From the IMG/VR virus record IMGVR_UViG_2671180417_000011: a stretch of DNA of 8,648 nucleotides; one strand, given 5' to 3'. The position numbers were made by a program, and so were the translations under genes. Below the pieces are notes generated by a model. That model had not been told where the DNA came from and did no database searches. It worked only from the letters and a program-made list of their open reading frames with translations. Numbering within the stretch: the stretch's first letter is position 1; every line of letters starts with the position of its first letter. The DNA comes from a virus (taxonomy: Duplodnaviria; Heunggongvirae; Uroviricota; Caudoviricetes). Shown piece by piece: positions 3,417-3,456 of the stretch.

Positions 3417-3456
3417 TCACCCTGTTAGAGGTGAACGACCAGCAATGTTAAAGAGC
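3417..3456 (-). promoter_or_regulatory. nutR-like site: boxA GCTCTTTAACA plus boxB-like hairpin
   Basis: On the minus strand boxA = complement of 3446-3456 (GCTCTTTAACA, the rrn-type boxA consensus as I recall it); 11 nt downstream a 5-bp stem (3417-3421 / 3430-3434) with 8-nt loop UCUAACAG. Lies between cro and cII as in lambda. Confidence 0.5.

Follow-up and report, generated by a model that had tools for sequence, protein, structure and literature searches.

Immunity and early region of the prophage

The window (the whole stretch of DNA analysed here, 8,648 nucleotides) comprises a lambdoid immunity and early region whose host is Escherichia coli. The prophage that carries it could be defective. 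The genes that bear on the present analysis are as follows:

969–1709, minus strand: DnaC/IstB-like ATPase
1716–2798, minus strand: DnaD-like replication initiator
3052–3348, minus strand: cII (Pfam Phage_CII, E 6.5e-26), the first gene downstream of nutR
3465–3689, minus strand: cro-like repressor gene (RefSeq CDS; Pfam YdaS_toxin, HTH_3 and P22_Cro), directly upstream of nutR
3800–4507, plus strand: CI-type repressor with HTH and S24 peptidase domains
5216–5521, plus strand: N antiterminator gene (101 aa, intact), downstream of nutL
6943–7164, plus strand: kil, in the pL arm
from 7742, plus strand: RecE-family exonuclease, in the pL arm

A 14-bp palindrome, ATAAC-N4-GTTAT, occurs five times in the window, compared with 0.18 copies expected. 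Three copies lie between cI and cro (3726–3788) and two upstream of the N leader (4978–5016), with none elsewhere. These elements were missed by the repeat finder and were matched with a pattern derived by hand. The two clusters are the OR and OL operators, situated upstream of nutR and nutL, respectively:

3726–3739, 3751–3764 and 3775–3788, minus strand: pR/pRM operators, within the region 3723–3788
4978–4991 (ATAAATATAGTTAT) and 5003–5016 (ATAACTTAGGTTAT), plus strand: pL operators
4991–4996 and 5014–5019, plus strand: pL promoter, −35 TTGCAC and −10 TATCTT with a 17-nt spacer, the hexamers having been read by eye

The predicted pL transcript starts at about position 5026 and opens with CAGCAGGACGC, as does its lambda counterpart, which puts boxA of nutL at about +40 (lambda, +34). 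By analogy with the operator geometry at pL, pR probably consists of a −35 element TTGCCC (3751–3746) and a −10 element TATTTT (3728–3723).

Several further elements were observed in the same region. A pRE-like promoter candidate was found at 3326–3367 on the plus strand, where TTGC-TGTAAC-TTGT differs from the CII site TTGC-N6-TTGC by one mismatch and is followed by the hexamers TTGTGA and TATATT, 16 nt apart; the stretch overlaps the start of cII, and transcription from it would run antisense over nutR and cro, toward the repressor gene. Between the repressor gene and pL, a small gene on the opposite strand (4661–4870, minus strand; phrog_3946) occupies the "rex" position; it converges on a terminator-like, G+C-rich hairpin with a T-run (4633–4650, plus strand), which would also end the repressor transcript. 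Units of approximately 60–90 bp with the pattern CCGCAGACGGTCCCGG.ATC.CCCGGGTTAACCCAATCGGCTTCAGGCTGCTGCGGTTGGTGT are present at 2829–2891 and 2923–2981 in the ORF 2819–3037 (phrog_2751), with a third at 2057–2142 inside the DnaD-like initiator gene; these may be iterons, origin sequences or the product of duplication. A 16-bp tandem repeat lies at 2885–2916, and a tandem CCTGTTCTTG-type repeat (2299–2333, plus strand, within 2228–2321) encodes an (EQ)n run of the replication initiator. The Rfam match to MIR7532 at 2228–2321, which scored 28 bits against a gathering score of 100, was rejected as a low-complexity artefact of this GAACAG-type repeat.

Composition and conservation of the probable nutR and nutL sites

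A nut site is an RNA signal that lets phage N make RNA polymerase ignore terminators, and N/nut antitermination is among the best-studied elements in molecular biology. Judging by the arrangement of the sequence elements listed below, positions 3415–3457 on the minus strand very probably constitute the nutR site of a phage-21-type lambdoid prophage, with positions 5065–5105 on the plus strand as its nutL partner:

3446–3457, minus strand: nutR boxA, CGCTCTTTAACA, an exact motif match in the rrn-type CUUUA form
3437–3445, minus strand: nutR spacer, UUGCUGGUC, which together with the end of boxA reads ACAUUG, with AUU inside
3415–3436, minus strand: nutR boxB hairpin, an 8-bp stem (GUUCACCU/GGGUGAGC) with the hexaloop CUAACA
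5065–5076, plus strand: nutL boxA, GGCTCTTTAACA, an exact motif match
5077–5085, plus strand: nutL spacer, UUGAUGGAC, 9 nt, with ACAUUG preceding here too
5086–5105, plus strand: nutL boxB hairpin, a 7-bp stem (UCUCAAC/GUUGAGA) with the hexaloop CUAACC

Read along the minus strand, the cro stop codon TAA (3467–3465) is followed by GTAACAC, CGCTCTTTAACA (3457–3446) and TTGCTGGTC, and then by GTTCACCT CTAACA GGGTGAGC (3436–3415) and AAACATCAG; boxA thus begins 7 nt past the cro stop codon, exactly as in lambda. On the plus strand, GGCTCTTTAACA (5065–5076) is followed by TTGATGGAC and by TCTCAAC CTAACC GTTGAGA (5086–5105). The spacer after the boxA 11-mer measures 9 nt at both sites. The phi21-type loop CUAACC is exact in nutL, and the nutR loop CUAACA keeps the first C and the UAAC core, its sole departure being an A at position 6, where C is expected.

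An earlier, sequence-only reading had described nutR as an N-type site with a boxA identical to that upstream of the N-like gene, at the lambda nutR and nutL positions, followed by a short hairpin with a CUAAC loop. The two identical boxA copies were recovered, with exact matches of GCTCTTTAACA at 3446–3456 (minus strand) and 5066–5076 (plus strand) and no others in the window. Their lambda-like placement was also borne out, the pR site lying between cro and cII and the pL site upstream of N. The hairpin does fold, 9 nt after boxA as anticipated, but its stem ends at 3415 and not at 3417; similarly, the CUAAC sequence is present, but as part of the hexaloop CUAACA and not as a pentaloop. At the level of sequence, everything expected of an N-type nut site was found; what that reading left unrecognised was the phi21 class to which the site belongs.

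We assessed these elements against shuffled sequence. Even with one mismatch allowed, GCTCTTTAACA has two matches in the window (expected 0.14), a number reached in 3 of 200 shuffles. CTAACN-hexaloop hairpins with a stem of at least 5 bp are limited in the window to nutR and nutL. The composite of boxA, spacer and CTAACN hairpin is present twice and appeared in none of 2000 dinucleotide-preserving shuffles; it is therefore real and not a chance match, and a chance origin of the nut sites is excluded. When the nutR minus-strand RNA was folded (29-mer), the hairpin foreseen in the earlier reading formed with a dG of −11.5 kcal/mol (z −3.3); the nutL 29-mer gave −9.5 kcal/mol (z −4.1) and a six-base loop. 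The nutR hairpin was also considered as a terminator of cro and discarded, there being no U-tract after it and no entry for it in the terminator scan.

Comparison of nutR with nutL, which the earlier reading had suggested, revealed that 5 of the 7 boxB stem pairs are changed on both sides while the loop CUAAC remains constant. In a small sample of four distinct sequences (window nutR, window nutL, phi21 nutR and a third nutR variant from IMG/VR), 96.4% of the cells in the boxB stems were paired, a level reached by 1 of 500 shuffles; controls in which the 3′ partners were slid yielded 15–54%. No third independent stem type was found among phages that combine a phi21-like N with other immunity regions: mEpX1, which has such an N and a different immunity region, carries the standard phi21 nutR. 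The covariation therefore derives from the nutL-versus-nutR comparison. On this comparative evidence, the boxB hairpin appears to be an RNA structure under selection, its stem being kept by pairing and not by sequence. An Rfam search of the whole window in E-value mode returned no match at nutR or nutL, which is uninformative since Rfam apparently has no nut or boxB family.

For phage 21, the sites of the immunity region carried by lambda DE3 served as the reference. DE3 nutR reads GCTCTTTAACA-GTTCTGGCCT-TTCACCT CTAACC GGGTGAG and DE3 nutL reads GCTCTTTAACA-TCGACGGAC-TCTCAAC CTAACC GTTGAGA. The window shares with phi21 the boxA 11-mer at both sites, the nutL boxB stem with its CUAACC loop, the nutR stem UUCACCU/GGGUGAG, the spacing, and the placement of nutR between cro and cII and of nutL between pL and N. 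It differs at nutR in loop position 6 (A instead of C), in one extra G–C pair at the stem base and in four substitutions in the spacer, boxA being unchanged. Alignment with the DE3 imm21 region gave a mean column identity of 93% from nutR to cII and 91% from pL to N, and identity to lambda DE3 across the N region is about 91%. In contrast, the window has a repressor, cro and operators of another immunity type (PA28-like), and its replication genes are DnaD-like and DnaC-like, not lambda O/P. The region as a whole shares 97.4% identity with PA28, an Stx phage, and with a set of Stx1a-converting phages. The nutR boxA is identical in phi21/DE3, PA28 and mEpX1; the mEpX1 record annotates boxA sites, and this phage also shares the phi21 nutL boxB and nutR stem.

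The complex of the phi21 N peptide with boxB (PDB 1NYB) is attributed to Cilley and Williamson (2003) in PMC12550061, which describes a CUAACC hexaloop with UAAC in a GNRA-like fold closed by a C–C pair. Given that this structure has been solved, the window site is known rather than unusual. By sequence, the element is of the phi21 class of nut site, a kind whose mechanism is already known, and nutR is an ordinary phi21-like lambdoid site. Nut sites of this class were reportedly identified by Franklin in the 1980s, and Lazinski, Das and others are said to have established the N–boxB specificity of lambda, P22 and phi21.

The cognate protein agrees with this assignment. The gene called N-like in the earlier reading matched phrog_271, "anti-termination protein N-like" (E 7.6e-35). 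Its product has MVTIIWKESKGTAKSRYKARREELIAERR at residues about 1–25 and contains at residues 8–29 the arginine-rich motif ESKGTAKSRYKARREELIAERR (positions 12–33 of the 105-aa translation searched), which is identical at 21 of 22 residues to the phi21 N peptide (PDB 1NYB chain A; E 5e-6). The C-terminal RNAP-binding region matches that of lambda N in PDB 6GOV, an antitermination complex. Overall, the protein is 82% identical to phi21 N, from which it differs by an Ala-to-Glu change in the RNA-binding helix and by a different C-terminal tail. Pfam N_peptide scored 20.2 bits on it, under the gathering threshold of 27.9, and NCBIfam contained no model matching either this N or phi21 N. In the RefSeq chromosome of E. 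coli FORC_069 (99.9% identical), the N gene bears the label "hypothetical protein" and the nut sites lack annotation. With N and the nut sites unannotated in RefSeq and NCBIfam lacking a model, this is a clean case for annotation transfer; the practical value of the identification is annotation, and it matters little beyond that.

The N leader itself contains a large hairpin (5114–5203, plus strand; dG −38.8 kcal/mol, z −5.1, with 0 of 200 shuffles as stable) that ends just before the N Shine-Dalgarno sequence and is kept in phi21, PA28 and mEpX1. In the lambda N leader, a structure processed by RNase III occupies the analogous position, and GGTTTTGGGG at about 5117–5126 resembles the lambda boxC region GGCTTTGGGG.

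Predicted antitermination and alternative readings

From what is known of lambda and phi21, we infer N–boxB binding, Nus factor binding and antitermination at both nutR and nutL. RNA polymerase starting at derepressed pR would transcribe cro and then nutR, whereupon boxA in the nascent RNA (CGCUCUUUAACA) would be bound by the host NusB–NusE(S10) heterodimer and the AUU-containing spacer would contact NusA. The boxB CUAAC(A) hexaloop would fold in a GNRA-like manner and be bound by the arginine-rich N-terminal helix of the prophage N, whose gene lies just downstream of nutL on the pL transcript. With NusA and NusG, the RNA-tethered N would convert the elongating polymerase into a termination-resistant form able to pass a predicted Rho-dependent region before cII (3415–3348) and later terminators. 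Rightward read-through would then switch on cII and the replication genes and, in the end, the late regulator; nutL would act likewise for the pL operon.

The same boxA, AUU-containing spacer and boxB hairpin make up the lambda sites, and the predicted cofactor logic, with NusB/E on boxA, NusA on the spacer and N on boxB, is that of lambda. The differences lie in boxA and boxB. Lambda boxA (CGCUCUUA) has one U fewer than the rrn consensus, whereas the window has the rrn form. Lambda boxB, GCCCU[GAAAA/GAAGA]AGGGC, has a purine pentaloop on the same stem at nutL and nutR, whereas the boxB hairpins of the window have CUAACN hexaloops on unrelated stems. To our knowledge, the N arginine-rich motifs of lambda and phi21 are not interchangeable. 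P22, with its own nut sites and N (gp24; PDB 1A4T), is likewise a lambdoid N/boxB system with a GNRA-like loop fold (PMC12550061); its boxB has a GACAA-type pentaloop bound by a different N peptide, and we saw no sequence similarity to the boxB of the window.

According to PMC2724277, the rrn boxA and spacer are CAC-ugcucuuua-acaauuua and the lambda boxA is cgcucuua (Table 1 therein), rrn boxA UGCUCUUUA being followed by ACAAUUUA; the extra U makes boxA a consensus site and enhances N activity, and NusA binds the spacer via the conserved AUU. The window sequences CGCUCUUUAACAUUG (nutR) and GGCUCUUUAACAUUG (nutL) have the rrn-type boxA and retain the AUU. As the earlier reading had stated, boxA is close to the ribosomal consensus: the 11-mer equals positions 2–12 of the E. 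coli rrn boxA UGCUCUUUAACAA (PMC2724277), including CUUUA, the spacer likewise holds AUU, and immediately before the nutR boxA stands CAC(C), which resembles the CAC that precedes rrn boxA. This likeness raises the question of N-independent, rrn-style antitermination, in which boxA alone would recruit NusB, NusE, NusA and NusG (and SuhB/S4) and suppress Rho-dependent termination, with boxB as dispensable as it is in rrn. Indeed, rrn boxA binds the Nus factors more tightly than lambda boxA does, and rrn antitermination requires neither N nor boxB (PMC2724277). We nevertheless consider this very unlikely. In rrn leaders the dispensable hairpin precedes boxA and there is no N, whereas in the window the hairpin lies 3′ of boxA, is conserved with covariation, and sits in a phage immunity region with N and not in an rRNA leader. 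The boxB loop is invariant and its stem is kept by compensatory changes, also across the 110 contigs described below, and the gene right after nutL encodes a cognate N that carries the phi21 boxB-binding motif. Nut sites of the phi21 type normally have boxA in the rrn form, which does not conflict with N-dependent action. Moreover, rrn-style antitermination is directed chiefly at Rho-dependent terminators and would leave unexplained any read-through at the intrinsic terminator of the pL operon.

This terminator and a hairpin downstream of nutR are the features of interest for termination in the two operons:

3380–3407, minus strand: conserved hairpin downstream of boxB and ahead of cII, where lambda has its tR1 region
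6726–6766, plus strand: intrinsic terminator with a 13-bp stem (6726–6760) followed by UUUUU, fold z −3.6, at the 3′ end of a DicF-like element

The 6726–6766 terminator is the barrier that a polymerase modified by N at nutL would have to pass toward kil and recE. On the minus strand, the terminator scan detected no intrinsic terminator downstream of nutR within the window, so that the first barrier there would be Rho-dependent (tR1-like) or lie outside the window. The 3380–3407 hairpin folds in both the window and phi21, with base changes that keep the stem, and may function in termination.

The location of nutR could also suggest a role in termination itself, with the site serving as the rut segment of a tR1-like terminator in which boxB separates rutA-like and rutB-like C-rich tracts. 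In the annotated lambda sequence, rutA (38249–38266) and rutB (38282–38301) of tR1 flank and overlap nutR (38265–38281), and the window site occupies the same position, followed by the conserved 3380–3407 hairpin; a review (PMC12360218) cites a dual function of boxB at tR1, in termination and in antitermination. As an alternative to the nut site assignment we regard this as extremely unlikely, since it leaves unaccounted for both the identical boxA with a CUAAC-loop hairpin at pL and the exact conservation of the boxA 11-mer. Rho loading is likely an additional property of the N-dependent nut site, as in lambda.

Other RNA elements were noted along the two operons. A DicF-like RNA (6712–6761, plus strand) matched Rfam RF00039 over its full length with 29.2 bits against a gathering score of 48 (E 0.0034), and an STnc100-like stretch (6763–6957, plus strand; 27.8 bits against a gathering score of 47) adjoins it; the two elements are located upstream of kil within the pL operon, and the matching RefSeq chromosome annotates neither. 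An oop-like antisense terminator (3076–3108, plus strand) inside the 3′ end of cII combines an 11-bp stem (6 G–C) with a T-run; its sequence, GGATTTGCTCAGAACG...CGTTTTTTATT, is similar to that of lambda oop, and the homologous stretch is called oop-like in the HK629 record.

Natural variation at loop position 6

We searched IMG/VR for the nutR boxB, allowing any base at loop position 6, which yielded 110 viral contigs. Position 6 was C in 93 of them, A in 16 and U (T in DNA) in one, and the allele of the window, GTTCACCT-CTAACA-GGGTGAGC, was found in 15 of the 110. The sequence [T/C]GCTCTTTAACA occurred at the same distance upstream of boxB in 105 contigs, and nutL stayed CUAACC throughout. 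Tolerance of C, A and U at position 6 agrees with the role of a closing mismatch and not of a recognition base, and the recurrence of CUAACA together with the U variant is the pattern of a tolerant loop position.

The CUAACA allele was accompanied by the N variant ARREELIAERRSSER in all 12 contigs in which N could be read. Two counter-cases were encountered, one contig with CUAACA and the standard phi21 N and one with the Glu-variant N and CUAACU; CUAACA had at least two origins, one of them in the company of the standard phi21 N. The association is most simply read as linkage within a single immunity haplotype, position 6 being a tolerant loop position. We considered whether CUAACA and the Ala-to-Glu change in N (ARREELIAERR) are instead a co-adapted pair in the PA28/Stx1a-phage immunity group. 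The A at position 6 of nutR stands in place of the C of the C–C closing pair in the solved boxB, and N affinity could therefore differ. Co-adaptation would mean that N affinity has been retuned at nutR relative to nutL, shifting the balance between rightward and leftward early transcription, or alternatively that N/nut specificity has changed in part; its one line of support is the co-occurrence itself, and we think it improbable.

That the C-to-A change leaves nutR attenuated or dead, with N acting mainly or only at nutL, is scarcely credible: the solved loop CUAACC has a C1–C6 pair (PMC12550061), which the CUAACA of the window nutR would disrupt, but the 16 contigs with A at this position include inducible Stx phages (PA28 and Stx1a-converting phages), the change has at least two origins beside a U variant, and the UAAC core and stem are intact. 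The nutR allele of the window, read as a phi21-type site, also sits in Shiga-toxin phages, where N-dependent early transcription precedes toxin expression.

A third branch (IMG/VR L029, L086, L110 and L114) has an N that begins with MATIIWKEAKGTAKSRYKARRAAKIEQ and a standard nutL. Its nutR boxB, GCUCACCU-CUAACC-GGGUAAGC, in which one pair is a C–A mismatch, was found in 23 of the 110 contigs. Among the matches listed in a separate scan of viral contigs for boxA followed after 8–30 nt by CTAAC, most were chance occurrences without a hairpin. Across 124 sequences (123 loci and the window), 36 boxA sites passed a stem filter, 3 of these being unrelated.
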